Assembly: GCA_049614105.1 (NCBI GenBank)
Contig: JBMZDF010000001.1
Span: forward strand, 24,338-88,337
Length of the DNA stretch: 64,000 bases
Source: Candidatus Promineifilaceae bacterium
GTDB lineage: Bacteria > Chloroflexota > Anaerolineae > Promineifilales > Promineifilaceae
Direction of reading: 5' to 3'
The notes beneath the pieces were generated by a model. It was not told the DNA's origin and did not search any database. It saw only the letters and a list, made by a program, of their open reading frames with translations. The translations under genes and the position numbers were made by a program. Positions 1-64,000 of the stretch are shown here, piece after piece. Numbering within the stretch: the first letter of the stretch is position 1; each line of letters starts with the position of its first letter.

Positions 1-229
1 TATTAACGTGTTAAAGAAACAAAAACAAACAGGAAACTTTCCTTTAGCCAACTCTAACTCATAAAACAGGTGTTTAAGGAGTACTTTGCACCTATCTATC
101 TTGCTCTAAAATCTAATTGGTCATTGTTTAGCGGAAATTTCTCTATAAAAACACGTACGTTGTTACATATATTTTTGATATGCGTGTTGATAGGCGCAAG
201 ATATATTTGTTATTTGTAGGTCTTAATAA

Positions 230-3200
230 ATGAAACTACCTTTTTCACTCTTATTTACCATTATGATGTTTGGCGTTTCAGTGTTGCGGGTTTCTGCATC
301 TTCTGGTTCGGATGATACATTCTATGTTGATAGTACCGTTGATGCAGTTGATATAAATATTGGTGATGGTGTGTGTGCATCATCAACAGGTGCATGTACA
401 TTACGTGCGGCTGTCCAAGAAAGTAATGCGTTGTCAGGTATAAACACGATTAGTCTTCCAGAAAATAAATACGTACTGTCTTTGAGTGGGGGGAATGAGG
501 ATTCATCGGCGTCGGGTGATTTAGACATCAGAGATGCATTGATTATCATAAACCCTACGCCAGAGATTGGCGCTAAAATAGAAGCAAGAGGTGATCGCGT
601 CTTTCATATTCATACAGGAGCAACTTTAACGGGATCATGGTTGGTGCTGGCAGGTGGTTTTGCGCAAAATGGGGGAAATATATTTGTTGAGAATGGGGGG
701 GAGGTTACGCTAAACCATACGCTTATTCGTTCTGGGTATGCGACAGACTATGGAGGAGGAGTTTATAGTCATGGTACGGTAAATTTACATAATTCTGGTG
801 TAGATGATAACTGGTCGTCTGGGCAGGGCGGGGGAATCTGGATTTCTTCTAACGGGCGTCTTGGTCTCGTTGGGACCAGAGTTGAGGGCAATCAGGCAGG
901 CAGCGGAGGGGCTGGGATTGCAAGTAGTGGTGTTGTAACAATTACACATAGTCGTATCGAGAACAATAAAACAAATATTGCCGATACATCACCTGATAAC
1001 GTCAGCCGTGTACATATGGGGGCAGGTATTTATAACAATGGGGAGATGACGATAGGAAACACCACGATCGCTTCAAATAAAACAAATGCGGGCGGCGGCG
1101 GTATTTTTAATACCGGTCATACAAATGGTGCTGAACTAAAAATTTATAACAGCACAATTTATGATAATGAAGCTATTGCGGGCGGTGGGTTGCTTAATAA
1201 TGCTCCAGCCACATTAATCAATACAACTATCAGCGATAATCGTGCCATTTTTGGGGAGACTAATTGGTCTCCTTATGTTGACAATCTTAAAGCCAGATAT
1301 CCTTTGTATATTGGTTTGATTAACTCGGTTGATCCACAGCCAGAGGATGTGCTGGGCGGCGGCGGTATTTTACACTATGCTGAAACAGATAAACTGTTGC
1401 GTCTGATTAATGTCACACTAAGCCATAATGAAACAGATTTATCTGGCGGAGGGCTACGAATTGTTGCAGGTGATGTGAGTAGTGTGAACACAATTATAGC
1501 CAAAAATAGGCCCAATAACTGTTATTATGGCTTCCCATCCGAAGAAAAATGGAACCCAATCAGGGCTATACAGAGCCTATATGGGGCTAGTATCAATTTT
1601 CGATCAGATGGTTACAATCTGGAAGATAGCAATATCTGTGAGTTGACAGGTATCGCAGATCGGGTTAACGCATCACCGTTGCTTGGCCCACTGGAAGATA
1701 ATGGCGGTGTTAGCTGGACGCGGGCGCTTTCTGTCACAAGTGCGGCCATAGACAATGGTGTGTCGATTGCGGCAGAAACCGAAACGGATCAACGTGGTAT
1801 TTCTCGGCCGCAAGGCGGCGCTTGGGATATTGGTGCGTATGAGTTAATTCCTCCAACGGTAGTTGCACCCTCTAATAAGGCGGAGGGCGTACTTGTTCTC
1901 TATGCATTCTCGCTCGATGGGGTCGTGCAAGATAACCACAATCTGACGGGGATGTTTCGGCCGATTATCAACACCCTAGAAACAACAACACGCGGGATGA
2001 CCCAAACACAGGTTGTCGCCCTAGTTGATTTAACAGGTGCTGACAACACATTCATCTTAACAGCTCAGAATGGTGTAGTCAGTCGGATTGACGGGCTGCC
2101 AGATGCAGCAGGCCAATTACAAACGCACCTAACCGAATACAATATGACCGATCCCCAGAGCTTGGGGGCCTTTATCAGTTGGGCACGCCATGCATACCCC
2201 CTACGCCAAACAACATTCTCATTTGTGGGACATGGGTCTTATGCTGTGCCAGATGTCCCAGACTCACCTTCAGCAAGAACAAGCCACGTTGTAAACTCAA
2301 ATCCTGTTGTGCCAGCGCCAGTCAATTGGCCGTTGCCAACCCTGCCTACATTTTGGGTGCTGCCCACGTTTTGGGTGCTGCCCACGTTTTGGGTCTTAAC
2401 GAATGTAACCGATGCGTACCCACAGCCTAGTATTATCTCGCCATATGACATCTCGGAAGCATTGCGAATCGGGACAAACGACGGGGCCGACCCGATTGAC
2501 GTACTCGACCTATACCACTGCTTTTCAGCATCGTTAGAAGAATTATATGAAGTATCAAACCCTAACGATCCGGAACGCCCTTATGCTCACAAGTTTCTCG
2601 CATCCCCCAGTTATGTTTATCTGGATGCGTCACTAATTGGCAACGCGCTGGCAACCTTACGGCCTCAAGCGAGTGCCGAGGCTTTGGGTAGAGGGATGAT
2701 AGATGGGTATGAGGATGCGTTGACAGCAGCAGAAGCAGATGGCCCCAGCGAACATCCGCGCAAAACTATTATGGTGGACAGCTTAAAAATCGCGGAGCTT
2801 AAGCCTGCTTTGGATGCACTCTCACAAAAAATTCTTGAAGAGGACGAACCAGATACGTTAATAGCAGCCTACACTAATGCTAAACGCTATGATACAGATT
2901 TCCAGTGCGGTATTCATGAATGGGAACTCAATGCAGACGACCCGTTTATTGACCTTCACAGTTTTACTGTCGAACTTGCCAATCGTTATGGGGACGCAAC
3001 CCCCGTTGGTATTAAAGCCAATACGCTTGCAATTAAGATCAGTAATGCTGTTGAATATAGCCGTACCGTTCATGGAACGCCGTGGTTTGCGGATGAATCA
3101 TCTGAGTGGCAATTAGATGGGATGGGGATTGCATTATGGGCTGATTTAAATGGTCGTGCATGTAATGGAGGCACCGCTTTAAGCTGGCAGGCAGCTTACT

Positions 3201-4531
3201 ACACTGACACAGTTTCGGTTGTTCAATTTGGCGACAACCCTCACCCCTTTAGCTTGCTTAAAGGTGGTGGCTGGTCAGATGTAGTGCATAAGAGTTGGGA
3301 AACGGAGATCACAACGCTTATTACACCAACAGTCAACATGCCAGCTTTAGTGACCCTGCCTGTCACCGTTGAGGCAGGGTTGAGTGAGATTGTCTTGCCA
3401 CGTACTGGTTCGCTCAGCGTCGACACCCCTGTCCCAATGGGGGTTGTTATCTCGGCCACTTCTATTGTCGAGAACCCCCGTGTGAATTTTGAGGTGCAGG
3501 CAGCGAATGGCGATACAGTTTTCCGCACACAGATAAACGCAGGTTACTTAGTGACAGGCACACATCCTATCTATATTGCCTCAGCCCCAGAGGCGAATTT
3601 ATGGATACCACAGCAAAACGGGCATTACACCTTAACTGTGACGCTTGACCCCGATCATTATCTTGTTGAGACAGACAGAACGGACAACGTACTTGTACAA
3701 CGATATGTGGTTGAGGGTCAGGGAAGTACGACTAAATTCTCTGTTTCCTTGAGAGATAACAAGGTTTGGTTTGATTCATCAACGCTGGAGCTAATATTGA
3801 ACAGTCAGGATACGCTCGGGATGGCATTTGTGGAGGTTTATCACTATCCAGCGGCAGGAGAAACAACTCACAAACCAGCTCTTTTAACGACGGATACACT
3901 TAATTTGAGCAACCCGATTTTGACACTACCTGCGGAATTGTTGGCTCGGGGGCGTGTGGAGCTATTTGTATGGGGTTGGGCAAACAATGGTGACTTTATC
4001 CCGCAGCCAGCTCGTTTGTCTTTGAGCTATGTGCCAGAGTCGTTAACGTTGGGCGCGAATGAGAGCCACTTTTTCTACTATAACCATCGTGCGGTGGATG
4101 GGACGACTTTAGCTTGGACATTGAACGAGTTGGCGGATTCGGCCGAAATGTTCATTTTTGAACCATACAATCATTGGCAGTCGCTGTATTCGGCCGATAA
4201 CACTATCACCGTGTCCCCCGCTCTCTCTGGAAACTATCTTGTTGAAATCCGCGCGGGCGAAAACGGGGCAACCTACTCTCTTAGTAACCAAGTTAGCCGC
4301 AGAGCGGCCGAGGCAACAACAACCCGCGTTACTCGTCCGCGCCCTAACCAGCTTCAACCCGTACCCGTGCCGCCGAAAAGCCCTGGGGTGTCCGCCATTA
4401 CAATCGCACAACATGAAGTTTCATCGCCTGTATACCCCATTGGTTTGATTATGTTCCTCGTACTTTCAACCGCGTGGGTTCTGCTCTGGCATACACATCG
4501 CGCCATTTTTCATCAGCGCACAAATAGATAG
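230..4531 (+). CDS. Giant secreted, C-terminally anchored protein with a parallel beta-helix N-terminal half and a clostripain (C11)-like region
   Basis: The ORF is 1433 aa. The N-terminus MKLPFSLLFTIMMFGVSVLRVSASS looks like a signal peptide. GACTLRAAVQESNA resembles the CSLREA motif. Gly/Asn-rich beta-helix turns repeat through the N-terminal half, which ends in DQRGISRPQGGAWDIGAYE. FVGHGSY and LDLYHCFSAS resemble a clan CD His/Cys dyad. The C-terminal hydrophobic helix is VYPIGLIMFLVLSTAWVLLW. Confidence 0.7.
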   Translation: MKLPFSLLFTIMMFGVSVLRVSASSGSDDTFYVDSTVDAVDINIGDGVCASSTGACTLRAAVQESNALSGINTISLPENKYVLSLSGGNEDSSASGDLDIRDALIIINPTPEIGAKIEARGDRVFHIHTGATLTGSWLVLAGGFAQNGGNIFVENGGEVTLNHTLIRSGYATDYGGGVYSHGTVNLHNSGVDDNWSSGQGGGIWISSNGRLGLVGTRVEGNQAGSGGAGIASSGVVTITHSRIENNKTNIADTSPDNVSRVHMGAGIYNNGEMTIGNTTIASNKTNAGGGGIFNTGHTNGAELKIYNSTIYDNEAIAGGGLLNNAPATLINTTISDNRAIFGETNWSPYVDNLKARYPLYIGLINSVDPQPEDVLGGGGILHYAETDKLLRLINVTLSHNETDLSGGGLRIVAGDVSSVNTIIAKNRPNNCYYGFPSEEKWNPIRAIQSLYGASINFRSDGYNLEDSNICELTGIADRVNASPLLGPLEDNGGVSWTRALSVTSAAIDNGVSIAAETETDQRGISRPQGGAWDIGAYELIPPTVVAPSNKAEGVLVLYAFSLDGVVQDNHNLTGMFRPIINTLETTTRGMTQTQVVALVDLTGADNTFILTAQNGVVSRIDGLPDAAGQLQTHLTEYNMTDPQSLGAFISWARHAYPLRQTTFSFVGHGSYAVPDVPDSPSARTSHVVNSNPVVPAPVNWPLPTLPTFWVLPTFWVLPTFWVLTNVTDAYPQPSIISPYDISEALRIGTNDGADPIDVLDLYHCFSASLEELYEVSNPNDPERPYAHKFLASPSYVYLDASLIGNALATLRPQASAEALGRGMIDGYEDALTAAEADGPSEHPRKTIMVDSLKIAELKPALDALSQKILEEDEPDTLIAAYTNAKRYDTDFQCGIHEWELNADDPFIDLHSFTVELANRYGDATPVGIKANTLAIKISNAVEYSRTVHGTPWFADESSEWQLDGMGIALWADLNGRACNGGTALSWQAAYYTDTVSVVQFGDNPHPFSLLKGGGWSDVVHKSWETEITTLITPTVNMPALVTLPVTVEAGLSEIVLPRTGSLSVDTPVPMGVVISATSIVENPRVNFEVQAANGDTVFRTQINAGYLVTGTHPIYIASAPEANLWIPQQNGHYTLTVTLDPDHYLVETDRTDNVLVQRYVVEGQGSTTKFSVSLRDNKVWFDSSTLELILNSQDTLGMAFVEVYHYPAAGETTHKPALLTTDTLNLSNPILTLPAELLARGRVELFVWGWANNGDFIPQPARLSLSYVPESLTLGANESHFFYYNHRAVDGTTLAWTLNELADSAEMFIFEPYNHWQSLYSADNTITVSPALSGNYLVEIRAGENGATYSLSNQVSRRAAEATTTRVTRPRPNQLQPVPVPPKSPGVSAITIAQHEVSSPVYPIGLIMFLVLSTAWVLLWHTHRAIFHQRTNR
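2342..2395 (+). repeat. Three tandem 18-bp units encoding (L)PTFWV x3 inside the giant ORF
   Basis: The DNA reads ctgcctacattttgggtg / ctgcccacgttttgggtg / ctgcccacgttttgggtc, and the protein reads LPTFWVLPTFWVLPTFWVL. Confidence 0.9.
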
Positions 4532-4560: not shown

Positions 4561-6021
4561 ATGATAAAGTTGCCGTTTTCAAGAATTAGCTTGTTTGTAG
4601 TCTTCCTGTCGCTATTTATCTACTCAAATGCGTATGCACAGGCAACAGGTGGCTCTCTAATCCACAGCATAGAGTCTGGCGGAACCGCAAGAGGGCATCT
4701 TAATCAGAGCAAGACGCCACTTATTAATTCGAGGTCGCTTAGTACGCTGCCTCGTACACTTTTCAACAATATCACCATTATAGACAACGGCATCACGCTC
4801 AATTGCCAAAATGAGATGTTGTGCTTCAGTATTGGAATTGGTGATGCGGAACAGATTGATCGGCTTGTGATAAGGGTGGACGATTCAGGGGGAATGAGTG
4901 TCACCGATAGGTCTATCAACAATCCCAAAAATTCTGAAACCGTGACTTTTAACCTTGCAAACTTTATACCAGAAGAAACTTATTCTTTTCAAGTGTATGC
5001 GCTCAATCGAAATAACGAATATATCGTTCCAGAGGGCGAAAATAGCGAAGTCTTGTTGACTAAATCGTTCACTATGCCTGCGGTGCGCGTATCTACGTTT
5101 GAGTCTAAAATTGAGACGGTTAATGTAGAGTATGAATCGATGCGCTTTATCATTGATCTAGCATTGCCAAGCGGCAACAAGATTCAACTATACTCAGGCC
5201 AGATTGTCGAAAATGATTCGGGTCGTAGTGTTCATAAGTTTGAAAGTAACGTTTTCAATGGGGATACAATCATCACGCAGCTTCCGCAAGAACTGCGTAC
5301 ACCTGAAGCCAAATATGATTATACGCTTGAATTAATATTAGAAATATCGGATGAGAATGACAACTGGTCTAAATCCGAAGTTTCCCGCGAGTTCTCTCCT
5401 AATCTACCTGTTGCCCCTAGCTTTATACAGACGTTGATCTCGCGCTTGGGTAGCAGTCCTGTTTTTTTGTTTGCGATTATGACGGTTGCACTCTCTATCC
5501 CTATCCTTATCATACGTCGCAGGCGTCAGGCAAAAGCGGCAGAAGTTAAAGTAAAACGCCCCCCTGTAGATAATTACACCATACTGGCTGAAGATTTGGT
5601 TTTTCCGCCAGTGACACGTGAAAGTAACGCAGGCGAGGTGGGTAATCTGGGGCGAGCTCCTGAGGGGCGGCTGCAACAGACCTTATTACACTCACAGAAT
5701 CGGGTTACACAACAGATTCAACCAATCCAGGTACGGGTGTTTCGTATGCCCAAAAATGAGATTGTTCATGAGTGGCGTGTTTCATCGTTGCCAGCGACTT
5801 TGGGACGTGCGAATTGTGATTTGGTAATTCGAGGGGACAATCATATTTCACGCCTTCACATTGAGATCGGCCGAGAAGATAACGCTATTTATGTTAAAGA
5901 TTTAAACAGCAAGGTGGGCGTACGAATCAATAAGCGACGTTTGCCCGTTGGGGTTAATGTAACGATTCGGCCGAAAACACAGATCCAGCTAAGTTCCAAA
6001 ACAACCATCGAGCTGATGTAA
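4561..6021 (+). CDS. Single-pass membrane protein with an extracytoplasmic N-terminal region and a cytoplasmic C-terminal FHA domain
   Basis: There is a signal-like N-terminus and a TM segment VFLFAIMTVALSIPILIIRRRRQ. The C-terminus LGRANCDLVIRGDNHISRLHIEIGREDNAIYVKDLNSKVGVRIN matches the FHA G-R...S-R-x-H...D-L-x-S-x-x-G pattern. Confidence 0.75.
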   Translation: MIKLPFSRISLFVVFLSLFIYSNAYAQATGGSLIHSIESGGTARGHLNQSKTPLINSRSLSTLPRTLFNNITIIDNGITLNCQNEMLCFSIGIGDAEQIDRLVIRVDDSGGMSVTDRSINNPKNSETVTFNLANFIPEETYSFQVYALNRNNEYIVPEGENSEVLLTKSFTMPAVRVSTFESKIETVNVEYESMRFIIDLALPSGNKIQLYSGQIVENDSGRSVHKFESNVFNGDTIITQLPQELRTPEAKYDYTLELILEISDENDNWSKSEVSREFSPNLPVAPSFIQTLISRLGSSPVFLFAIMTVALSIPILIIRRRRQAKAAEVKVKRPPVDNYTILAEDLVFPPVTRESNAGEVGNLGRAPEGRLQQTLLHSQNRVTQQIQPIQVRVFRMPKNEIVHEWRVSSLPATLGRANCDLVIRGDNHISRLHIEIGREDNAIYVKDLNSKVGVRINKRRLPVGVNVTIRPKTQIQLSSKTTIELM

Positions 6022-6309
6022 CAAACGGTGATATTCGGCCGAAATCAAAGCCATCATGAAAGCTATGTAAAAGAGCGTTTACATAACCTATGTGAGGTGG
6101 ATCACATCCGCCAAAATAATTTAGGCGGTTAGTCCAAATAACCTTTGAACTGCACGGCGCTTTATTATAGTAGAGACCTTGATTTTATTCGGGGCGTGCC
6201 CTAGACGAAAACCGCAGAGGTTTGTTGTCATCTACTCTGGTTTGTGCATAAAAACCTCTGAGGTTTATTGACTTAGCAAAAAAGCTTAATAGATTGTTAT
6301 AATTGTTAT

Positions 6310-6546
6310 ATGGAACATAGTCAGCTTATAAATGATGATAAAGAACGGCTAATCTCACTTGCTGAAGCGGCAGGTAAATATGGCTTGACCCAACGATATT
6401 TGAGCAAGTTAGCCAAAAAAGGACGCTTGCAAGCTCAAAAGTATGGGCCGATTTGGCTTACTACCCCAAAAGACGTTGAAATCTATATTGCTAGCCGTCA
6501 AAAACGTGGTGTATATCGTGAAGATATTGATGTCACCAATTTTTGA
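6310..6546 (+). CDS. Excisionase/MerR-type HTH protein, paralog 1 of 5
   Basis: It starts MEHSQL, and RLISLAEAAGKYGLTQRYLSKLAKKGRLQAQKYGPIWLTTPKDVEIYI fits the HTH_17-like pattern (EAA..G......L...G.L.....G..W). The other four copies align over their full length. Confidence 0.8.
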   Translation: MEHSQLINDDKERLISLAEAAGKYGLTQRYLSKLAKKGRLQAQKYGPIWLTTPKDVEIYIASRQKRGVYREDIDVTNF

Positions 6547-6572
6547 CAAATGGCCTTTTATGTAGCTATAAT
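6543..6572 (+). promoter_or_regulatory. Near-consensus sigma-70 promoter (TTGACA-18-TATAAT) overlapping the stop codon of paralog 1
   Basis: ttgaca lies at 6543-6548 and tataat at 6567-6572. A conserved leader (agaaatcaaagcgcaaattgcgaagatag) follows and runs into the ATG at 6617. Confidence 0.55.
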
Positions 6573-6616
6573 TGCAGAAATCAAAGCGCAAATTGCGAAG
6601 ATAGTTTAATTATTGT

Positions 6617-6853
6617 ATGGAACACAATCAAACTGCGAGTGATAATAAAAGACGGTTGATTTCTTTGCCTGAAGCGGCTGAGCTTTATGGTTTCCATTCC
6701 GAGTATTTAAGTACACTAGTACGGAAAGGACGGCTAGACGGTCTGAAAGTTGGAGGGCGTTGGATTACAACCCCACAGGATGTAGAAAATTTTATCCGCA
6801 GCCGACAAAAACGCGGTGTTTATCGTGCTGATATTCAATTGGATTGCGAATAA
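6617..6853 (+). CDS. Excisionase/MerR-type HTH protein, paralog 2 of 5
   Basis: MEHNQTASDNKRRLISLPEAAELYGF...GRWITTPQDVENFIRSRQKRGVYRADIQLD is colinear with the other copies. Confidence 0.8.
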   Translation: MEHNQTASDNKRRLISLPEAAELYGFHSEYLSTLVRKGRLDGLKVGGRWITTPQDVENFIRSRQKRGVYRADIQLDCE

Positions 6854-6872
6854 CTGTTGAATCAGTTATAAT
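6844..6872 (+). promoter_or_regulatory. Sigma-70-like promoter (TTGCGA-17-TATAAT) overlapping the end of paralog 2
   Basis: ttgcga lies at 6844-6849 and tataat at 6867-6872. Confidence 0.4.
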
Positions 6873-7041
6873 AGCCCAAGAATGCAACAGATAATAAACT
6901 GCAAAAAACGTATTCATTTCAAAGAAGCAAGAGAATAGCTTTTGCAGGTTGTTGCAATTGACGAGGCCAACCATCCAGATTTAGATTATATTTGGGTGAG
7001 AGAAATCAAAACGCAAATTGCGAAGATAGCATAATTATTGT

Positions 7042-7269
7042 ATGGAACACGATCAAATTGCGAGTGATAATAAAAGACGGTTGATTTCTTTGCCTGAAGC
7101 GGCCGAGCTTTATGGGTTTAATGCTGATTACTTACGCCATTTAGCACATAGAGGCCGCTTACAAGCTCAAAAAGTTGGTCGAAATTGGATCACAACACCA
7201 GCACAAGTTGAAAGCTATATTGCCAGCCGAAAAAAGATGGGTGTTTATCGTGGCGATATTCAACTTTGA
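7042..7269 (+). CDS. Excisionase/MerR-type HTH protein, paralog 3 of 5
   Basis: MEHDQIASDNKRRLISLPEAAELYGF...GRNWITTPAQVESYIASRKKMGVYRGDIQL aligns with the other copies. Confidence 0.8.
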   Translation: MEHDQIASDNKRRLISLPEAAELYGFNADYLRHLAHRGRLQAQKVGRNWITTPAQVESYIASRKKMGVYRGDIQL

Positions 7270-7295
7270 CAAATAATCCTTTACAGGACTATAAT
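7266..7295 (+). promoter_or_regulatory. Near-consensus sigma-70 promoter (TTGACA-18-TATAAT) overlapping the stop codon of paralog 3
   Basis: ttgaca lies at 7266-7271 and tataat at 7290-7295. Confidence 0.55.
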
Positions 7296-7361
7296 TGCAA
7301 CCATCAACTAGCCGCTGAGAGAAATCAAAGCGCAAATTACGAAGATAGCATAATTATTGTT

Positions 7362-7592
7362 ATGGAACACGATCAAGTTGCGAGTGATAGTAAAAAACGG
7401 TTGATTTCTTTGTCCGAAGCGGCAGAAATCTATGATTTCAATAACGATTATTTGGGTCAGCTTGCTAGACGAGGAAGACTTAAAGCTCAAAAAATCGGCA
7501 ATTCATGGGTGACAACCCCTAATTATGTTGAAGACTTCATTCGTAGTCGAAAACAAAAAGGATTGTTCCGAAAAGATATTCAGATCAGTTGA
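7362..7592 (+). CDS. Excisionase/MerR-type HTH protein, paralog 4 of 5
   Basis: The start is set at the internal MEHDQVASD (ATG 7362) by homology with the other four copies and the conserved leader upstream. The track ORF beginning at 7266 would read through the promoter and leader. Confidence 0.75.
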   Translation: MEHDQVASDSKKRLISLSEAAEIYDFNNDYLGQLARRGRLKAQKIGNSWVTTPNYVEDFIRSRKQKGLFRKDIQIS

Positions 7593-7618
7593 CGCGTGCT
7601 CGTTTGATCGAGTATAAT
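7589..7618 (+). promoter_or_regulatory. Sigma-70-like promoter (TTGACG-18-TATAAT) overlapping the stop codon of paralog 4 and driving repeat copy A
   Basis: ttgacg lies at 7589-7594 and tataat at 7613-7618. Confidence 0.5.
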
Positions 7619-7812
7619 GCGTGCAATCAAATAGTTGATTATGCAACAACAGTACAGTGCAACAACACTGCGCAGTTGCCTAACCCAAACCCTGCAAAGA
7701 CAGGCGGCGGACTGTGTTCAGCGTACTCAGGTAGCTAACTGACTTCAAGTCAAAAAGCAAATGAGAATGCAAATCCAGCCAATTTCAAGCGGTTGAAGTC
7801 ACAGACTTCTCT
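7611..7812 (+). repeat. Copy A of a duplicated ~202-nt element, a candidate structured leader RNA of paralog 5
   Basis: It aligns base-for-base with 8089-8290 apart from scattered substitutions. It contains the hairpins CAGTG-N6-CACTG and CCTG-N6-CAGG and the 9-bp stem TGACTTCAA(7740-7748)/TTGAAGTCA(7793-7801). Confidence 0.7.
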
Positions 7813-7843
7813 GCGCAAATTGCAAAGATAGTTTAATTATTGC

Positions 7844-8290: not shown

Positions 8291-8302
8291 ACCTTACTTG
8301 TC

Positions 8303-8342: not shown

Positions 8343-8396
8343 GTTGTCAGAGTAGGCTAGTTGAGAAAAGGTTACAGTTCTAAATAAGTTTAATTA

Positions 8397-56291: not shown

Positions 56292-59206
56292 GTGAAAAGC
56301 AAACAACGTCGTCAGTTGCCGAAATGCTGTTGCTGCATTTGCGTTACAAAGAGGTTGCGGGGCTTGTCAATCAGGGAGGAACAGAATGGTTGTTAGATGA
56401 TCCGAGCCGTGCGTTTATTCTTTATGATGGTTCGGCCGATCTGTTTGCCGTCCCGTTGCAGGCGGGACGTATTGTGGGGGCGCGAACACATCTCATGCAT
56501 TTGGAAGCGGGCGACATTGCGCTCGGTTGTGGAACGTTGGGGGAGACGCTTGGCTATCTACTCGTCAGCGGGCATCGCACAAAGGTGATGCAAATCGGCC
56601 GAAATCGACTCGACAAAATCGCCAACAACGAAGGGTTTCAAACTGAGATTGCCACCATGCTCAATCGCTGGATTGTGAACCTGACCCACGCGGTCGTCAC
56701 CGATCTGCCCCCCAAAGAAAGTATCAAATTAGCCGCCAATCATGCGCTGCCGCTGAAAAAAGGAACAAGCGCCAGCGTCCAGCGTGGCGTTCTCTGGATC
56801 AAGCACGAACAGGGCAAATCTCAGTTTGGCAATTTGGAACACATGCCTCATCTAAACGGGGTGGGGCGCTGGCCGCTTGGCGAGCGTCATTGGATTCGGG
56901 CTTTAGAAAATGGCCAGCTATCGAGCATCGACACAAACAAATGGCTTGAGAAGGGAGCTGATTGGGCTGACGTTGACCAGTTTCATCAGTTTATTTCAGG
57001 GGTGCTTGAAAAGTGGCTGTTAGATTCGGCCGAAACACAAGCCCGCCAGCTTGCCGCACAGGTCACCGCCAGCCAGCAAGCGATCAATCAGGGACTGCGC
57101 CAGCTTGCACAGCCGTTGCTGCCAAGTCAAGAGACGCCGCAACGCCAATACACCAAACGCGAAGCGCTACAGGCAACGTATCAGCTTGTTGCAGACACCA
57201 TTGATGCTGACATTGTGATGCCAGCCAGCAAATCTTGGTGGAGTTCAACCGCAAAAATTGCGGCGGCCTCACAGCTACAGGCGCGTCGTGTGGCGCTCAA
57301 AGGGGAATGGTGGCGTGAAGATCACGGCGCACTGATTGGCATTGTTGGAGAAAGCGAGGATGAAGTTGCACTGCTTCCGACTCGCCGAGGCTACAAACAA
57401 ATCAACCTGTTTACAGGCAGTGAGCAGGTTGTTGATGAGGCGGTTGCGACCGCGATGTGGCCCGTTGCCGACATGCTTTATCGTGGTTTAGCGGATCGGC
57501 CGCTCACGGCATGGGACCTGTTGCGTTTTGGCATGAAATCGACAAAACGGGATGTGGTCAAGATTTTCGCGCTAGGCATCGCCATTGGGCTGTCCGGGCT
57601 TGCGCTGCCGCTGGCAACCGCGTTTATGGTTGATACGATTATTCCCATTGGACAGCCTCAACTGCTTGTGTCGATGATGTTACTGCTGCTGCTTGTCATT
57701 GGCGCGTCCGCTAGTTTTCAGTTCGTTCAGGATTTGTTCGTGCTGCGATTACAGATGCGGTTAAGTCGTGATCTCCAAACGGCAATTTGGATGCGTGTGT
57801 TGAATCTGCCCGTTTCATTTTTCAAACGGTACACGGCGGGTGAACTAGGCAAACGTGTTTTGGGCGTGCAAATGATTCAGCAGGTTGTATCTGGCATCTT
57901 GCCAATGATGTTGATTGCCGTCTTTTTCGCGCTTTTCAACTTTGGGTTACTGCTGTACTTTGATATACGGTTGGCCGCCGTTGCGATGCTGCTTGTGTTA
58001 TTCTCCAGCAGCGTTTCATTCACCATTGGTCTGCGTCAGCTTTCTGCGCGTCGTCAGGTCGCGCATAGTGAGGGGGAATTGTCGGGGCAAGTGTTACAGT
58101 CGTTGGAAGGAATCGCGAAGTTGCGCGTTTTTTCGGCCGAAGGGCGTGCATTCGCCAACTGGGCACAACAGTTTGGGGCGCTCAAACAGCTAGAACTCTC
58201 TATCGAATCTAAAAACAATCAGCTAAGCGTCTTTAACGCCGCCTTTGGCATCGTCACTAATGTCGCATTATTTGCAATGGTCGTGGGGCTGGGACAAGGC
58301 AACATGACGGTCGGCCAGTTTTTGGCATTCAACGCGGCGTTTATTCAATTTCTGTTTGGGATGTTGACGTTGAGCGATGGCGCGATTGAGATTTTAGACA
58401 GCATCCCACTTTATGAACGACTTCGGCCGATAATCGAACAACAGCCAGAGCTAACCCAAGACAATCTCTCGCCGGGCAAGCTAGCAGGCATGATTAGCTT
58501 GCAAGATGTTCAATTTAAGTATCACGATGACGGCCCGCTTATTTTGCAACAGCTCTCATTGACCGTTCAGCCGGGCGAGTTTGTTGCGGTTGTTGGCCCA
58601 TCTGGATCTGGAAAATCAACGTTGTTGCGCTTGCTGCTTGGTTTTGAAGCGCCCAGCGTGGGCGCGATTTATTTTGACGGCAATGATGCCGCAATGCTGA
58701 ACTGGCGTGAAGTGCGGGCGCAGATAGGAACGGTGTTGCAGGATGGGCAAATATTGCCTGAGAGCATTTTTCAAAACATTGTCGGTGTCGCATCTAGTTT
58801 GACACATGATGATGCATGGGCCGCGTTAAAGATGGCGGGTTTAGAACGGGACGTTCGTGCGATGCCAATGGATCTTAGCACCGTGCTGACGCAAGGCGGG
58901 GGAACGCTTTCAGGTGGGCAGCGGCAGCGGTTGCTGATTGCACGGGCGCTGGTTCGCCGCCCGCGCATCATTCTTCTGGACGAAGCAACAAGCGCCCTCG
59001 ACAACAAGACACAAGCCGAGGTCATGAAAAGCGTTGAGGCACTGCAATCAACGCGCATCGTCATCGCACATCGTCTGAGCACCATCCGCAACGCCGATCG
59101 CATCATCGTGATGGATCATGGGAAAGTGGTCCAAGAAGGCACTTATCAACAGCTATTGCGGGAAGATGGTTTATTTGCTGAGCTGGCCAAACGCCAGCTT
59201 GCATGA
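56288..59206 (+). CDS. ABC exporter subunit with an N-terminal cNMP-binding-like domain (NHLM-type ATP-binding subunit)
   Basis: An N-terminal ~150-aa beta-roll-like region (FILYDGSADLFAV...GDIALG) precedes the TMD and NBD (GPSGSGKST, LSGGQRQR, ILLDEATSALD). Its ATGA overlaps the upstream gene. Confidence 0.8.
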   Translation: MSEKQTTSSVAEMLLLHLRYKEVAGLVNQGGTEWLLDDPSRAFILYDGSADLFAVPLQAGRIVGARTHLMHLEAGDIALGCGTLGETLGYLLVSGHRTKVMQIGRNRLDKIANNEGFQTEIATMLNRWIVNLTHAVVTDLPPKESIKLAANHALPLKKGTSASVQRGVLWIKHEQGKSQFGNLEHMPHLNGVGRWPLGERHWIRALENGQLSSIDTNKWLEKGADWADVDQFHQFISGVLEKWLLDSAETQARQLAAQVTASQQAINQGLRQLAQPLLPSQETPQRQYTKREALQATYQLVADTIDADIVMPASKSWWSSTAKIAAASQLQARRVALKGEWWREDHGALIGIVGESEDEVALLPTRRGYKQINLFTGSEQVVDEAVATAMWPVADMLYRGLADRPLTAWDLLRFGMKSTKRDVVKIFALGIAIGLSGLALPLATAFMVDTIIPIGQPQLLVSMMLLLLLVIGASASFQFVQDLFVLRLQMRLSRDLQTAIWMRVLNLPVSFFKRYTAGELGKRVLGVQMIQQVVSGILPMMLIAVFFALFNFGLLLYFDIRLAAVAMLLVLFSSSVSFTIGLRQLSARRQVAHSEGELSGQVLQSLEGIAKLRVFSAEGRAFANWAQQFGALKQLELSIESKNNQLSVFNAAFGIVTNVALFAMVVGLGQGNMTVGQFLAFNAAFIQFLFGMLTLSDGAIEILDSIPLYERLRPIIEQQPELTQDNLSPGKLAGMISLQDVQFKYHDDGPLILQQLSLTVQPGEFVAVVGPSGSGKSTLLRLLLGFEAPSVGAIYFDGNDAAMLNWREVRAQIGTVLQDGQILPESIFQNIVGVASSLTHDDAWAALKMAGLERDVRAMPMDLSTVLTQGGGTLSGGQRQRLLIARALVRRPRIILLDEATSALDNKTQAEVMKSVEALQSTRIVIAHRLSTIRNADRIIVMDHGKVVQEGTYQQLLREDGLFAELAKRQLA

Positions 59207-60274: not shown

Positions 60275-61054
60275 ATGCTAATCGAGGCACAAACAAGTGT
60301 GAACTATACATTTTTTGAAGAAGACGCAGAACGACCCTCAAATAATCTAACGCATTTGCCGATTGATCTGTTAGAAAAGCATTGCCTAGTTGAATCCCAA
60401 CGTTTTCAGCAGACGGGACAATGTAAAACTGAATTTGGATACGAACTATGTCGGCGTGCGCTCAAGCTCCAAAATGAGTCTGCTTGGACAGTACTGATGC
60501 GCGTTTATCAGCAGTTGGTCGCCCATTGGGTACGCAATCATCCTAGCTTTTTGAGCAGTCGCGAGGACGAATTTTTTTTTGTCAATCGAGCTTTTGAGCG
60601 ACTGTGGCGCAATATTGCGTGTAAACCGCAGAAATTTGAAAAATTTACCTCATTAAAAGGATTGCTGCGATTTTTGAAACTGTGTGTCCATTCGGCCGTC
60701 CTTGACGACGGCCCACGGCGCTCACCAGTTGATGAATCCTCCATTGAATCAGTTGAATCGTTGCTGATTGGGGAACGCGGTGTGAGGCTAGACCAGCGCA
60801 ACAAGTTCTGGCAGATAGTTCAACAACAACTCAACAATGAGGCAGAGCGGGTGGCAATTGGTGGCTATTTCCTCTTTGGTATGAAGAACCGCGAGATAGC
60901 CGCCGCCTATCCATCCCTATTTGAAGATGCTAAGCAAATCGCAAATTTGCGACTTACAGTTATACGTCGATTTGCTCGGATACCCGCATTTGAGGCGAAA
61001 TTGCGCGATATCCTTGGGCAGGAGCCGACACATCAGCAACATTTGACGTGCTAG
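60275..61054 (+). CDS. ECF-like sigma-70 family protein, divergent
   Basis: The region-2-like segment is WTVLMRVYQQLVAHWVRNH...FFVNRAFERLWRNI. The region-4-like segment is MKNREIAAAYPSLFEDAKQIANLRLTVIRRFAR. An anti-sigma-like gene lies downstream. Confidence 0.45.
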   Translation: MLIEAQTSVNYTFFEEDAERPSNNLTHLPIDLLEKHCLVESQRFQQTGQCKTEFGYELCRRALKLQNESAWTVLMRVYQQLVAHWVRNHPSFLSSREDEFFFVNRAFERLWRNIACKPQKFEKFTSLKGLLRFLKLCVHSAVLDDGPRRSPVDESSIESVESLLIGERGVRLDQRNKFWQIVQQQLNNEAERVAIGGYFLFGMKNREIAAAYPSLFEDAKQIANLRLTVIRRFARIPAFEAKLRDILGQEPTHQQHLTC

Positions 61055-61731
61055 AGGAACCCATGATCTTTCTAACAGACAATGAACGGATGCAGTATTT
61101 AGATGGTGTGGCTTCGGCCGAAATCACCGCGCTCATCGTCAACTCTAGCAGCGAACGCTCACGCGTGGCGCAATTAGCCACCCTGCATAAGCGATTTCAC
61201 CAGTTAATCAACCCCAATTGTTGCCCTGACGTGATGGAACTGGGCGAATACTATCTTGATACACTCGACTTTGAACAAAGTTTCAGTGTGTCACTTCACG
61301 TGCAGCATTGCACGCTCTGCCAACAGAAATTGGCGCAAACTATGCACTTACTTGATGGTCAGGAAACGCAGCAACTTTTTTTTCTATATCCGCAGCGGGG
61401 TGACTTGTTGCAGGCAACCCGCAGCGCCTCGATGCCAGAAGTGCCAGATTCTTATACATTCCGCATGAATGAGGCGGAAATCAACGTTGCCTTGCAGCAT
61501 AGCACCACCCACAGCGGGCAAATGTCGCTGTGGGGGTTGTTGACAGGGCTTGATTTGAATATGCAATATTCGGCCGAATTGCGTTCCCTAAACGATCGCG
61601 CCTCTATTACGACCGCTGTCGCAGGACTCGGTGATTTTAGTTTTGAGCAAGTCACAAATGGCGAGTATGAACTCGTCATCCGTAGCAGCATCATGGATTA
61701 TGTGTTGCGCGGTATTGTGGTTGCTGCATGA
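61048..61731 (+). CDS. Putative zinc-finger (HxxxCxxC) anti-sigma factor
   Basis: HVQHCTLCQQKL matches the zf-HC2 pattern. The gene overlaps the sigma gene. An alternative ATG start lies at 61063. Confidence 0.45.
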   Translation: MLEEPMIFLTDNERMQYLDGVASAEITALIVNSSSERSRVAQLATLHKRFHQLINPNCCPDVMELGEYYLDTLDFEQSFSVSLHVQHCTLCQQKLAQTMHLLDGQETQQLFFLYPQRGDLLQATRSASMPEVPDSYTFRMNEAEINVALQHSTTHSGQMSLWGLLTGLDLNMQYSAELRSLNDRASITTAVAGLGDFSFEQVTNGEYELVIRSSIMDYVLRGIVVAA

Positions 61732-64000
61732 CCCCCCAGGAAACTGTTGAAGTATTAATTGCAGGTGACCCCATAACGCGCATCGATGCGCCAAAACTTG
61801 TCCAAACCCAACTCAAAACAATAGCACGGCAGACGGTTCGCCAAAACGTGGCGGCTGCAAATGAGGTGGTGCAAGCCGCCTATCGGTTTGCCGATCTTGT
61901 CTCAGCCGATTGGTCCCGCTCGTTTGCACTCACGCTTGCGGCCAATGTGCAACTGCTGGCCGTGGGCAACTACGAACAAGCGATCGGGCTGTTTGACAAA
62001 GCGGCCGCGCTTGCTGAGACACCGCTCGATCGTGCCGTCATACAGGTGGGCACAATTGCCGCGCTGCTGCATCAAGGGGCATTTGACAAAGCGGTACAGC
62101 TTGGCGACCTCATTGCCCCCATTCTTGAACAACATGGCGCAAATGAACAACTGGCAGGGATGCTGAACAATCTCGCGTTGGGGATGCATATTCGCCAAGG
62201 GAACGATGCGCTGGCGCTCGAACATTTTGAGCGTGCCGCCGCATTGTTAGACCCTAGTCATCCTTATTACGCGCTCATCCAGATGAACCACAGCGTGCCG
62301 TTGCGCCACTTGGGGCGGTTTGCTGCGTCGTTGCACTTTAGCACAACCGCCTATGACCAACTGATGGCGCAGGGCGCGACGGCCGAGGCGATCCGCGCAC
62401 ACCAGAATGTGGCGATGACCTATTTTACGCTGGGCAACTATAACGAGGCGTTGCGCTTGTTTGACGAGGTGCGTCAATTTTGGCTGGCAGACGGACGTGA
62501 GCGGGATGCGTTGGTTGTGGAGCTATTTGTCAGTGATGGCTTGTTTCAACTGTATCGTTACGGCGATGTCATCACGCGCTGTGAGCAAGCAATTGAGGGG
62601 TTGGCAACGCGCCAACTGCCGGGGGAACTGGCGCAGGCGTGGCTTCTTCTGGCACGCGCCTACGCCGCAATCGGGCGCACGGCTGATGCGCTGGCGGCGG
62701 TTGAACACGTGACCCAGCTATTTGCAGAGATAAATAATCAGCATGGTCAGCAGGTGGCGCAGCTAGAACGGGCTGCGATTTTGCTCCAGCAGGGCAAACA
62801 ATCGCAGGCGGCGATGCTGGCGGCGTCGTTAGTTGCGCCGCTGGGCGAACAGATTATGTTGCAGATGCGTGCTAAATTGATCGTTGCGGCGGCTAATTTG
62901 GCTGATAGCGCGACGGAAGGGCATCTGGAGCGCGTGATTGCGTGTGCAAAATCGGCCGAACTCAGCGGCGTACTTTATCGTGCCTATGCGCTGCTGGGGG
63001 ATTGGCACAGTCAGCACGGCCAGCCGTTGGCGGCGCTCAAACGTTATGAATCGGCGCTAGAGATTATTGAGTTGCTTAAAGGGCGGCTGATGGTTGAGTT
63101 TCGCATCAGCTTTGCCGATGGTGCGTTTGATATTTATGAAAAAGCGACCGCCCTGTGTATTGAGCAAAAAGCGTATGTCATGGCGCTTGATCTTGCAGAA
63201 CGGGCTAAATCGCGTGCGTTGCTCGATATGATTGCGCATCGCTTGGATTTGAGCATTCAAGCACGGCAGCCTACTGATGAACCGCTGGTGCGCGAACTGC
63301 TTGCGCTGCGTAAAAAGCGGGATCAGCTTTATCGGCAGTTGGGCAGCCGTGATGATTTGCGTTTGTCGACGATTGTTTCGACAACGCCTGCGCTGGCTGG
63401 GGTGCAGCAGCAGATCCAGCAGTATGAGGCGCAAATTACCGCCTTGTGGCATCAGTTGTTAATCCGCAACGCGGACTACACGCGGGAGTCGGCGCTGTGG
63501 CAGGTGCAGACGCAACGGCCACAGCTTGATGCTGATACGTTGCTGATTGAATACTTTACGCTGCAAGATCGGTTTGTGGTGTTCTTAGTTTCGGCCGAAA
63601 CGGTCGACGTGATCCAGCTTGAAGTCACAAGCAAAATGGTTGAACGCTGGCTTCAATTTTTCAAAATAAACTGTCAACGCGCCGTTCCAAATCGCCATTC
63701 TCCTAAACTGTATCGCGCCCTCACCGCACAAGCCGTTCAGTTTCTCCAAAATTTATATTCACAGCTCATCGCCCCTATTCGTTCGCGCCTCACCCACTAT
63801 CCCAATCTGATTATTGTGCCGCATGACATGCTGCATCATGTTCCGTTTCATGCGCTGCATGATGGAACCTGTTTTCTGCATGAAGCGCATGTTGTCAGCT
63901 ATTTGCCGAGCGCCACGCTGTTTACGCCGGCCCGTCGTCGTTCATCAATCGGCCGATTTGTCGCGTTTGGCTACTCCAACGCGGATCAGCTTCCCCACAC
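61728..64000 (+). CDS. TPR and CHAT-domain protein, 3'-partial because it runs off the window
   Basis: I translated this ORF myself; it is absent from the track because it has no stop codon. It reads MTPQETVEVLIAGDP..., followed by many TPR-like helices (GNYEQAIGLFDKAA, GNYNEALRLFDEV) and then LIIVPHDMLHHVPFHALHDG, typical of the start of a CHAT domain. Its ATGA overlaps the anti-sigma gene. Confidence 0.7.
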   Translation, partial: MTPQETVEVLIAGDPITRIDAPKLVQTQLKTIARQTVRQNVAAANEVVQAAYRFADLVSADWSRSFALTLAANVQLLAVGNYEQAIGLFDKAAALAETPLDRAVIQVGTIAALLHQGAFDKAVQLGDLIAPILEQHGANEQLAGMLNNLALGMHIRQGNDALALEHFERAAALLDPSHPYYALIQMNHSVPLRHLGRFAASLHFSTTAYDQLMAQGATAEAIRAHQNVAMTYFTLGNYNEALRLFDEVRQFWLADGRERDALVVELFVSDGLFQLYRYGDVITRCEQAIEGLATRQLPGELAQAWLLLARAYAAIGRTADALAAVEHVTQLFAEINNQHGQQVAQLERAAILLQQGKQSQAAMLAASLVAPLGEQIMLQMRAKLIVAAANLADSATEGHLERVIACAKSAELSGVLYRAYALLGDWHSQHGQPLAALKRYESALEIIELLKGRLMVEFRISFADGAFDIYEKATALCIEQKAYVMALDLAERAKSRALLDMIAHRLDLSIQARQPTDEPLVRELLALRKKRDQLYRQLGSRDDLRLSTIVSTTPALAGVQQQIQQYEAQITALWHQLLIRNADYTRESALWQVQTQRPQLDADTLLIEYFTLQDRFVVFLVSAETVDVIQLEVTSKMVERWLQFFKINCQRAVPNRHSPKLYRALTAQAVQFLQNLYSQLIAPIRSRLTHYPNLIIVPHDMLHHVPFHALHDGTCFLHEAHVVSYLPSATLFTPARRRSSIGRFVAFGYSNADQLPH

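Follow-up and report, generated by a model that had tools for sequence, protein, structure and literature searches.

A highly iterated, HIP1-like palindrome in Chloroflexota and the inversion of GC skew at its copies

Background

What could cause a single 8-letter palindrome to recur about once in every kb of a bacterial genome, in genes and spacers alike? This question is raised by a 64,000-nucleotide stretch of DNA from a Candidatus Promineifilaceae bacterium (Chloroflexota; assembly GCA_049614105.1, contig JBMZDF010000001.1, positions 24,338 to 88,337), called here the window, in which the palindrome TCGGCCGA is highly abundant. A first, sequence-only reading of the window had likened this word to HIP1 (GCGATCGC), the highly iterated palindrome (HIP) of cyanobacteria. 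HIP1 has been known for three decades with no agreed function, and the HIPs that have been described, including the alternate HIPs TCGATCGA, GGGATCCC, and CAGGCCTG of the HIP1 literature, are all cyanobacterial.

The analysis presented here indicates, with a probability of about 0.9, that TCGGCCGA is a DNA-level word of the HIP class in a clade of Chloroflexota. It would then represent a second, independent HIP system, with another word and in a phylum unrelated to the cyanobacteria, and would permit comparative tests, such as which genes co-occur with iterated palindromes across both phyla; phylogenetic-profile or PGLS analysis of gene co-occurrence has been applied to HIP1 (bioRxiv 10.64898/2026.06.24.733823). 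The literature searched contained no paper that ties TCGGCCGA, CGGCCG enrichment, or HIP-like words to Chloroflexota, and none that describes TCGGCCGA or any HIP beyond the cyanobacteria.

Abundance and context of the octamer

An exact search of the window finds 63 copies of TCGGCCGA, about 1 per kb, which is the number that had been counted by eye; all of the coordinates listed at that time match. Dinucleotide-preserving shuffles of the window give a mean of 0.76 copies (maximum 3), and 0.7-1.9 are expected from Markov models (order 0-4) whose training sequence had the sites masked. The excess is about 30-90-fold, and is also put at about 60-80-fold. (Unmasked high-order models come near the observed count only because sub-words of TCGGCCGA dominate them.) When synonymous codons are shuffled inside open reading frames (ORFs), 3.7 copies are expected (maximum 9) versus the 59 observed there. 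Thus, the claim of a density far above chance is borne out under all three backgrounds (0.7-3.7 expected). Among the palindromic 8-mers of the window, TCGGCCGA ranks first, 7-fold ahead, and CGGCCG is the sole strongly enriched 6-mer palindrome. The HIP1 word itself is present in 0 copies.

The octamer is typically embedded in A/T. Position -1 is T in 41/63 copies and A in 20/63, while position +1 is A in 44/63 and T in 15/63; T at -1 or A at +1 is found in 55/63, and the A/T preference includes -2 and +2. The 10-mer TTCGGCCGAA, which had been said to account for most copies, is present 30 times (0.06 expected) and makes up 48% of the 63; what does hold is that 58/63 have A/T on both sides. 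Variants that differ from TCGGCCGA by one base cluster at the outer positions 1/8, with 24 in the window versus 9, 6, and 4 at the inner positions, and the same trend is seen in four relatives that bear the word.

Using a simple longest-ORF gene model, 59/63 copies lie inside ORFs, 38 on the plus strand and 21 on the minus strand, in proportion to coding length, and the other 4 lie between ORFs. All three frames are used: TCG-GCC-GAn (Ser-Ala-Glu/Asp) 39 times, nTC-GGC-CGA (Gly-Arg) 9 times, and nnT-CGG-CCG-Ann (Arg-Pro) 11 times. Pooled across all word-bearing genomes, the split is 213/74/56. In these respects (both strands, intergenic DNA, every frame) the sequence-only reading was accurate. 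The copies, from the exact search, the assignment of ORF and frame, and the inspection of flanking context or orthologues, are listed below; each is TCGGCCGA, entered without a strand, and the last token of a line is its context.

1957-1964, ORF 230-4531 (+), Arg-Pro frame, TTCGGCCGATT
4139-4146, ORF 230-4531 (+), Ser-Ala-Glu/Asp frame, TTCGGCCGAAA
4190-4197, ORF 230-4531 (+), Ser-Ala-Asp frame, TTCGGCCGATA
5867-5874, ORF 4561-6021 (+), Gly-Arg frame, ATCGGCCGAGA
5967-5974, ORF 4561-6021 (+), Arg-Pro frame, TTCGGCCGAAA
6035-6042, between ORFs, TTCGGCCGAAA
9377-9384, ORF 8397-9500 (+), Arg-Pro frame, ATCGGCCGAAT
9935-9942, between ORFs, TTCGGCCGAAA
11296-11303, P-type ATPase ORF 10014-12230 (+), Gly-Arg frame, ATCGGCCGAAT
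12292-12299, ORF 12243-13088 (+), Gly-Arg frame, ATCGGCCGAAA
13922-13929, ORF 13429-16167 (-), Ser-Ala-Glu frame, TTCGGCCGAAT
14588-14595, ORF 13429-16167 (-), Ser-Ala-Glu frame, TTCGGCCGAAT
15254-15261, ORF 13429-16167 (-), Ser-Ala-Glu frame, TTCGGCCGATA
16866-16873, ORF 16671-18845 (+), Ser-Ala-Glu frame, TTCGGCCGAAA
16998-17005, ORF 16671-18845 (+), Ser-Ala-Glu frame, TTCGGCCGAAA
18272-18279, ORF 16671-18845 (+), Arg-Pro frame, ATCGGCCGAAT
22129-22136, ORF 22018-23397 (+), Ser-Ala-Glu frame, ATCGGCCGAAC
23902-23909, ORF 23562-25406 (-), Ser-Ala-Glu frame, TTCGGCCGAAA
24612-24619, ORF 23562-25406 (-), Gly-Arg frame, CTCGGCCGAGA
24634-24641, ORF 23562-25406 (-), Ser-Ala-Glu frame, TTCGGCCGATT
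25788-25795, ORF 25550-26605 (-), Ser-Ala-Glu frame, TTCGGCCGAAC
26666-26673, between ORFs, TTCGGCCGAAA
26963-26970, between ORFs, TTCGGCCGAGT
29167-29174, ORF 27084-29300 (+), Gly-Arg frame, ATCGGCCGAAT
29678-29685, ORF 29255-30271 (+), Ser-Ala-Asp frame, TTCGGCCGATT
31801-31808, ORF 31507-33756 (+), Ser-Ala-Glu frame, TTCGGCCGAAC
32905-32912, ORF 31507-33756 (+), Ser-Ala-Asp frame, CTCGGCCGATG
33634-33641, ORF 31507-33756 (+), Ser-Ala-Glu frame, TTCGGCCGAAT
34300-34307, ORF 33790-34431 (+), Ser-Ala-Glu frame, TTCGGCCGAAC
35398-35405, ORF 34831-37503 (+), Ser-Ala-Glu frame, TTCGGCCGAAA
36202-36209, ORF 34831-37503 (+), Ser-Ala-Glu frame, TTCGGCCGAAA
36868-36875, ORF 34831-37503 (+), Ser-Ala-Glu frame, TTCGGCCGAAA
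36982-36989, ORF 34831-37503 (+), Ser-Ala-Glu frame, ATCGGCCGAAT
37769-37776, ORF 37509-38273 (-), Arg-Pro frame, TTCGGCCGATA
40270-40277, ORF 39505-40971 (+), Ser-Ala-Glu frame, ATCGGCCGAAA
43643-43650, ORF 43390-44865 (-), Ser-Ala-Asp frame, ATCGGCCGAAA
43683-43690, ORF 43390-44865 (-), Arg-Pro frame, ATCGGCCGATG
43943-43950, ORF 43390-44865 (-), Ser-Ala-Glu frame, TTCGGCCGAAC
44459-44466, ORF 43390-44865 (-), Ser-Ala-Asp frame, ATCGGCCGATG
45264-45271, ORF 44876-46522 (-), Ser-Ala-Asp frame, ATCGGCCGAAA
45723-45730, ORF 44876-46522 (-), Ser-Ala-Glu frame, TTCGGCCGAAT
46392-46399, ORF 44876-46522 (-), Ser-Ala-Glu frame, TTCGGCCGAAG
46980-46987, ORF 46815-48107 (-), Gly-Arg frame, ATCGGCCGAAA
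48346-48353, LanM ORF 48123-51239 (-), Ser-Ala-Glu frame, TTCGGCCGATG
49811-49818, LanM ORF 48123-51239 (-), Arg-Pro frame, TTCGGCCGATT
49961-49968, LanM ORF 48123-51239 (-), Arg-Pro frame, TTCGGCCGAAT
50580-50587, LanM ORF 48123-51239 (-), Gly-Arg frame, ATCGGCCGAGC
51172-51179, LanM ORF 48123-51239 (-), Ser-Ala-Glu frame, TTCGGCCGAAT
52486-52493, ORF 52238-53317 (+), Arg-Pro frame, TTCGGCCGAAA
52742-52749, ORF 52238-53317 (+), Ser-Ala-Glu frame, TTCGGCCGAAT
53488-53495, ORF 53314-54078 (+), Ser-Ala-Glu frame, TTCGGCCGAAG
54497-54504, ORF 54045-56291 (+), Arg-Pro frame, ATCGGCCGATG
55485-55492, ORF 54045-56291 (+), Ser-Ala-Glu frame, ATCGGCCGAAC
56432-56439, ORF 56270-59206 (+), Ser-Ala-Asp frame, TTCGGCCGATC
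56595-56602, ORF 56270-59206 (+), Gly-Arg frame, ATCGGCCGAAA
57026-57033, ORF 56270-59206 (+), Ser-Ala-Glu frame, TTCGGCCGAAA
58133-58140, ORF 56270-59206 (+), Ser-Ala-Glu frame, TTCGGCCGAAG
58423-58430, ORF 56270-59206 (+), Arg-Pro frame, TTCGGCCGATA
61114-61121, ORF 61048-61731 (+), Ser-Ala-Glu frame, TTCGGCCGAAA
61570-61577, ORF 61048-61731 (+), Ser-Ala-Glu frame, TTCGGCCGAAT
62952-62959, ORF 61686-63998 (+), Ser-Ala-Glu frame, ATCGGCCGAAC
63591-63598, ORF 61686-63998 (+), Ser-Ala-Glu frame, TTCGGCCGAAA
63949-63956, ORF 61686-63998 (+), Gly-Arg frame, ATCGGCCGATT
1-64000, both strands, flank signature of every copy: about 50 nt G(+T)-rich 5' and a mirror C(+A)-rich 3'

A constraint on DNA rather than on protein

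Sixty-three copies could in principle reflect a dispersed repeat or mini mobile element, a conserved protein motif, a structured RNA, or an artefact of chance or composition. Ser-Ala-Glu/Asp is indeed the commonest reading (39/59), and the 10-mer TTCGGCCGAA sits in tandem repeats of a Cohnella and a Myxococcales genome. However, the 60-nt flanks of the copies are unrelated, with a mean pairwise identity of 0.28 and a maximum of 0.48, equal to random positions, so that the sites are not confined to one dispersed repeat. Mirrored complementarity of the left and right flanks matches that of controls in which flanks of different copies are paired, for the window as for three relatives, and is explained by composition; the minimum free energy of 88-nt site-centred segments equals that of chimeras, of random windows, and of random windows with a planted octamer. 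A hairpin, a repetitive extragenic palindromic (REP) element, and a miniature inverted-repeat transposable element (MITE) are ruled out by these controls. Furthermore, REP elements and MITEs are recognized by an extended conserved sequence or hairpin in mostly intergenic positions, and here 59/63 copies are in ORFs. Together with the three frames, two strands, and spacers in which the word is found, and with 0.7-3.7 copies expected versus 63, these results essentially exclude a repeat, a protein motif, or chance as its origin. TCGGCCGA is an 8-bp DNA signal that stands by itself, bordered by A/T at positions +/-1-2.

Nor do the flanks share a discrete co-motif; both a Chi-like word and a fixed GG at -10/-9 were considered and rejected. 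The words enriched there are G-runs and G/T-rich (GGGG, GGTG, GTTG, TGTG) and reflect general G-richness only; the G peaks near -9/-10 track codon phase, not distance from the site.

The imprint on proteins is considerable. TCGGCCGA encodes 39/46 Ser-Ala-Glu/Asp tripeptides of a window in which TCG supplies 19% of Ser and GCC 26% of Ala. Ser-Ala-Glu is present 35 times versus 6.5 expected by amino-acid composition (a ~5-fold excess), and permutations of this tripeptide are at or under expectation. Therefore, the pressure is on DNA and alters both codon choice and protein sequence, in keeping with the original proposal that no protein motif is being conserved; the two other frames and the spacers argue for the same.

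Comparison with orthologues, which had been suggested as a check for directed substitutions, provides two examples. In the ATPase gene (site 11296), ATT GGC CGG of the word-free contig L096 corresponds to ATC GGC CGA of the window, and two synonymous changes make the site. At site 18272, in an ABC transporter gene, TAT CAA GCC CAA of contig L095, counted as lacking the word, corresponds to TAT CGG CCG AAT, and amino acids are changed. The 3' flank of the site is also recoded into A/C-rich codons. Just 3' of the ATPase site, positions 11304-11324 read TAC ACC AAC CCC ACA CAC (Y-T-N-P-T-H), and the same positions read H-T-C-A-E-Y and H-A-C-V-Q-Y in two word-free orthologues; this segment exemplifies how a C/A-rich flank can alter protein sequence. 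As these alignments show, it was point substitutions, partly synonymous and partly amino-acid-changing, that wrote TCGGCCGA into genes and spacers that already existed. The word thus reshapes genes in their codon choice, in the frequency of one tripeptide, and in amino-acid composition over tens of codons.

Inversion of GC skew at the octamer

Within the window, each octamer marks a switch in composition: the copies have G/T-rich DNA in the 20 nt on their left and A/C-rich DNA in the 20 nt on their right. The mean G+T of all 63 is 0.57-0.68 to the left and 0.37-0.45 to the right, in plus- and minus-strand genes alike. Over 50 nt the difference between left and right is 0.34, against a standard deviation of 0.031 at random positions, and it decays over about 200-250 nt from TCGGCCGA. 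In other words, the strand running 5' to 3' into the site is G-rich on both sides. The inversion is found again in 4/4 word-bearing relatives. What stays constant there is an excess of G over C 5' of the site and of C over G 3' of it; the T/A component of the relatives can be weak, missing, or of opposite sign.

The skew belongs to the full octamer. No flank skew is seen at CGGCCG that lacks the outer T/A (30 in the window, 40-80 in relatives), at 104 pooled TCGGCCG[C/G/T] sites with both strands counted, at inner one-off variants, or at GGCC, CCGG, GATC, CGCG, and other palindromes. Neither GGCC-type words in general, then, nor the hexamer or half-sites display the skew. The sequence-only reading had taken CGGCCG, an EagI-type core, as the heart of the word. 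The inner six bases do match, but the functional unit is the octamer and not the EagI-type hexamer, because hexamers that lack the outer T/A show slight enrichment only and do not carry the flank signature.

At third codon positions GC skew is +0.39 on the left and -0.37 on the right; in those within 30 nt of a site, G is 0.41 versus C 0.13, with a background of 0.26 each. Non-coding bases are also skewed, and codon positions 1 and 2 little. Because it is carried by third positions and non-coding bases, the skew is a feature of the DNA, and an effect of protein context is ruled out. Purine content also rises at third codon positions near sites; given this shift and a T/A skew that is inconsistent across lineages, a pure deamination footprint is rejected.

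HIP1 itself was sampled by scanning metagenomes for paired GGCGATCGCC, which yielded 14 HIP1-dense contigs, presumed cyanobacterial (L100, L102, L119, L121, L155, L157, L164, L165, L168, L180, L181, L182, L189, and L209), with 223 GCGATCGC sites in 101 kb. From 4 to 50 nt, the GC skew of the HIP1 flanks is +0.07 left of the site and -0.06 right of it (difference 0.13, z=6 versus random positions). In the same contigs, CGATCG outside HIP1, GATC, GGCC, and CGCG have no flank skew. Flank skew is not mentioned in two HIP1 papers (PMC4390886, PMC5861425). The octamer-specific inversion of GC skew is thus a new, quantitative, and easily checked property, strong at TCGGCCGA and weaker at HIP1.

Distribution among lineages

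One genome per species of the GTDB was scanned for two TTCGGCCGAA copies 40-70 nt apart, and counts refer to the matches listed. At least 4 other Chloroflexota metagenome-assembled genomes (MAGs) bear TCGGCCGA at 1.1-1.7 per kb, with a GC content of 51-61%; these densities are inflated by locus selection, since each locus was picked for holding two sites.

Anaerolineae bacterium ACE_NR_CHLO5: at least 13 loci, 1.71 sites per kb, GC 54%
Chloroflexota bacterium NJ_NJASGE3bin.21: at least 11 loci, 1.37 per kb, GC 61%
Anaerolineae bacterium 5_bin.52: at least 4 loci, 1.25 per kb
Ardenticatenaceae MAG: at least 3 loci, 1.13 per kb

In each of these four, TCGGCCGA is by far the commonest palindromic octamer. 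Most of the remaining matches listed have few copies and the appearance of chance pairs. Contigs related through the ATPase do not share the word: L096 (70% amino-acid identity) has 0 copies in 7 kb, L220 (60%) has 0 in 20 kb, and L095 (64%), counted as lacking it, has 2 in 22 kb. Thus, TCGGCCGA marks a sub-lineage that spans a 10-point GC range, not the whole phylum Chloroflexota. An earlier genome scan with the ATPase protein as query gave no match, and among the viral contigs scanned none has TCGGCCGA at high density.

Three listed occurrences of TTCGGCCGAA are of another kind and are not related to the free-standing word. In Cohnella faecalis (L032 5319-6137) it lies within a tandem repeat with a 51-nt unit and 16 copies; in Myxococcales MAG BP4.bin7 (L037 3404-4078), within a tandem repeat with a 21/42-nt unit and ~32 copies; and in Chloroflexota SMAG_U4645 (L068), inside a recurring longer palindrome, GGTTCGGCCGAACC.

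Comparison with HIP1 and other known systems

TCGGCCGA shares several distinguishing traits with the HIP class. It is a GC-rich palindromic octamer, more than 15-fold over-represented at ~1 per kb or gene; it is free-standing in coding DNA (all frames, both strands) and in non-coding DNA; it shifts codon and peptide usage; its one-off variants fall at the first and last positions; and it is common to related genomes (at least 4 Chloroflexota MAGs, with three relatives counted as word-free). Like HIP1 and the alternate HIPs, it is lineage-specific, separate lineages having separate words, and the octamer-specific skew has the same sign, G-rich 5' and C-rich 3'. The parallel drawn at the outset therefore extends from density to peptide distortion, outer-position variants, and lineage sharing. 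It is not HIP1 proper, which is GCGATCGC in a cyanobacterial host: the core is CGGCCG with outer T/A and A/T shoulders, the host is a member of the Promineifilaceae, in the Chloroflexota class Ardenticatenia/Anaerolineae, and the flank skew exceeds that of HIP1 about 2-3-fold and extends farther. The HIP class is further characterized by cognate orphan methyltransferases for the inner core, with methylated sites, by site conservation between orthologues beyond the neutral expectation (Xu et al. 2018), and by a periodicity of site density over 10-90 kb; in the 64-kb window there is no such methyltransferase gene and the local spacing is near Poisson.

Other systems fit less well. The uptake sequences of Haemophilus (uptake signal sequence, USS) and Neisseria (DNA uptake sequence, DUS) are found about once per kb, are tolerated in genes with a preferred frame, combine a strong core with weak flanks, and come in "dialects"; they are non-palindromic, and their function needs a known competence apparatus. 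TCGGCCGA resembles them in density, preferred frame, core plus weak flanks, and lineage "dialects", but it is a perfect palindrome and not a non-palindromic 9-12-mer. With Chi it shares G-richness on the strand running 5' to 3' into the site, in the flanks and not in TCGGCCGA itself. By analogy, this orientation would be that of Chi acting on an end made at the site, and of the FtsK-orienting polar sequences (KOPS) around dif. However, unlike Chi, KOPS, and the SpoIIIE recognition sequences (SRS), TCGGCCGA is palindromic and without polarity, and no discrete flank motif is present. Finally, its inner six bases are the EagI/XmaIII site. Restriction targets are usually avoided in the host, whereas CGGCCG is enriched in the window, where at least 9 other 6-mer palindromes are at 0, and the specificity is 8 bp; a type II target would be a hexamer that is avoided or neutral.

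Possible mechanisms

Among the explanations considered, polar repair or recombination with conversion bias ranks first, followed by DNA uptake, a by-product of hexamer methylation, and a site for a nucleoid protein. The first is preferred tentatively, with a little less than an even chance of being correct. In this process, an octamer-specific DNA-processing activity, presumably a protein, would recognize TCGGCCGA and proceed away from the site (or toward it), with 5' to 3' polarity on both strands. Candidate steps are a nick or break at the recognized or methylated site, directional excision or resection, and then resynthesis or strand exchange. Through biased repair or gene conversion the word would reach ~1 per kb and acquire flanks that are G-rich 5' and C-rich 3'; its spread would be due to conversion bias, not to organism-level selection. 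The skew inversion itself points to a 5' to 3' polar process centred on the site, which leaves as candidates nick-directed repair, resection plus recombination, and strand-specific uptake, and makes a passive binding site less likely.

This activity could take several forms. A nick or break followed by 5' to 3' excision or resection would leave the G-rich strands as 3' tails. Their composition is that favoured by RecA, which prefers TGG-type sequences that resemble Chi (PMC3763553), and their orientation is that of Chi; this form also agrees with the reported effect of methylated HIP1, which raises transformation and recombination in a "Chi-like" manner (bioRxiv 10.1101/2024.09.10.611283). Alternatively, nick-directed mismatch correction that works only 5' to 3' would let replication errors of one strand escape on each side, a polar version of the hexamer-methylase model to which the outer-position bias of HIP1 one-off variants led Elhai (2015; PMC4390886). 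The third possibility is strand-specific uptake that begins at the site. With an inconsistent T/A skew and a changed purine content, deamination or G:T-mispair asymmetry falls short by itself, and selection for, or biased conversion to, G-rich flanks likely contributes.

Several results weigh against polar repair or recombination at a HIP-class word. T-versus-A skew varies by lineage and purine rises at third positions, so deamination or G:T-mispair asymmetry alone is insufficient, because both predict coupled transitions; a mutational footprint fits no better than selection for G-rich flanks through a binding preference. One-off sites have no residual skew and are uninformative on direction. 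The spacing of copies in the window is near Poisson (coefficient of variation 0.85, P=0.11), and thus no ruler-like function is seen. The 64-kb window holds no gene for a DNA methyltransferase, Vsr, MutH, or a restriction enzyme. In addition, the only orthologous segment between word-bearing genomes (L050 6686-8000 versus L083 6258-7572, 1.3 kb, 69% nucleotide identity), a single pair, has 4 and 3 sites, with 1/6 positions shared. At two further positions of this pair, one genome has the full site and the other the one-off TTGGCCGA.

Uptake, in which a surface or periplasmic receptor of natural transformation would prefer DNA with TCGGCCGA, so that word and flanks accumulate by uptake bias as a self-recognition sequence, is unlikely. 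It would account for the density of ~1 per kb, the use of all frames with one preferred, the peptide distortion, and the USS/DUS-like "dialect" and core plus weak flanks; an uptake role has lately been put forward for HIP1, whose methylated form improves transformation. Yet known uptake sequences are non-palindromic, the window holds no competence genes, and uptake bias does not obviously predict a G/C skew that changes sign right at the site and fades in ~200 nt. We know of no documented competence in the Promineifilaceae lineage. Also unlikely, and placed behind uptake, is the view that the word is a functionless by-product: cytosine methylation of CGGCCG, together with very-short-patch-type or methyl-directed mismatch repair, would turn near-matches into full sites, as in Elhai's model for HIP1. 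The outer-position variants (24 versus 9, 6, and 4) are as in that case (PMC4390886), CGGCCG is the sole enriched 6-mer palindrome amid strong avoidance of many others, a Chloroflexota contig (L010) has CGGCCG ~10-fold enriched in arbitrary flanks, and excision only 5' to 3' from a nick would give the observed sign of the skew. Against this, it is the octamer that bears the flank signature and most of the enrichment, neither the 30 window CGGCCG without T...A nor the hexamer-only L010 has a skew, the skew is not transition-coupled, and the window offers no methyltransferase or Vsr. It is improbable that the copies form an array, kept by selection, to which a dimeric nucleoid or chromosome-organizing protein binds. 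The palindrome, its A/T shoulders, and the symmetric flanks would suit a dimeric DNA-binding protein, and Xu et al. 2018 have argued for selection and chromosome-structure roles of HIP1 (PMC5861425). However, near-random spacing and the few positions shared between L050 and L083 are not expected of such an array, and a static site explains neither the ~200-nt skew nor its 5' to 3' polarity.

HIPs might even be a signal class that crosses phyla and has one mechanism, although this is rather doubtful. The octamer would start or end strand-polar processing, a nick or break with 5' to 3' resection that feeds recombination; the flanks at both TCGGCCGA and HIP1 would be its footprint or landing pad; and lineages would have swapped words and kept the machinery.

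Additional features of the window and its relatives

One word-bearing relative carries a methyltransferase gene. In Anaerolineae MAG ACE_NR_CHLO5 (L021 6206-7927, JAMLHW010000004.1), a beta-class SPPY DNA methyltransferase (Pfam N6_N4_Mtase), whose best solved relative is the N4-cytosine enzyme M.PvuII, adjoins an EcoO109I-family (RGGNCCY) endonuclease that is split in two ORFs. This endonuclease has probably decayed, so that the methylase would be an orphan. As a candidate for the TCGGCCGA enzyme the methyltransferase was set aside: given its pairing with an EcoO109I-family enzyme, it is probably unrelated.

The MAG Chloroflexota bacterium P01_D01_bin.58 (L010 1-6725) has CGGCCG 20 times in 6.7 kb at 47% GC, versus 1.2-2.4 expected, with arbitrary flanking bases and no flank skew; it may represent a hexamer-level iterated palindrome in another Chloroflexota lineage.

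Several palindromes are present in 0 copies in the window (expected number in parentheses): GCGCGC (47), CAGCTG (37), GGCGCC (25), CTGCAG (23), GGGCCC (15), TTCGAA (15), CCCGGG (9), CTCGAG (7.5), and GGTACC (5.7). CCGG is found 18 times versus 174 expected. This avoidance suggests a heavy load of restriction-modification systems.

Neighbouring copies are spaced by 666 bp four times, at 13922/14588/15254, 33634/34300, and 36202/36868, and 45723/46392 are 669 bp apart. The genes involved are unrelated (post hoc p about 0.003). The distance 666 is seen 0 times among 1796 pair distances in relatives, and a 666-bp ruler was rejected as probably a coincidence.

The three longest word-free stretches (3.3-3.9 kb) are 6043-9376, 18280-22128, and 40278-43642. 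The first has the lowest GC (0.43), holds a small HTH_17 (excisionase-type) ORF at 7266-7592, and may be recently acquired DNA that has yet to gain sites. As a compositional marker, TCGGCCGA could be of practical use for binning the MAGs that bear it and for spotting recently acquired DNA.

The genes of the window include those for a class II lanthipeptide synthetase, C39-peptidase ABC exporters, pentapeptide-repeat proteins, STAND NTPases, adenylate cyclases, and response regulators. One C39 ABC exporter is encoded at 13429-16167. A lanthipeptide-type gene cluster occupies 44876-59206:

46815-48107, glycosyltransferase
48123-51239 (-), LanM synthetase
51276-51951, small ORFs, candidate precursors
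54045-59206, two C39-peptidase or ABC exporters

A DUF7005 protein and an HlyD-like protein are also members of this cluster.

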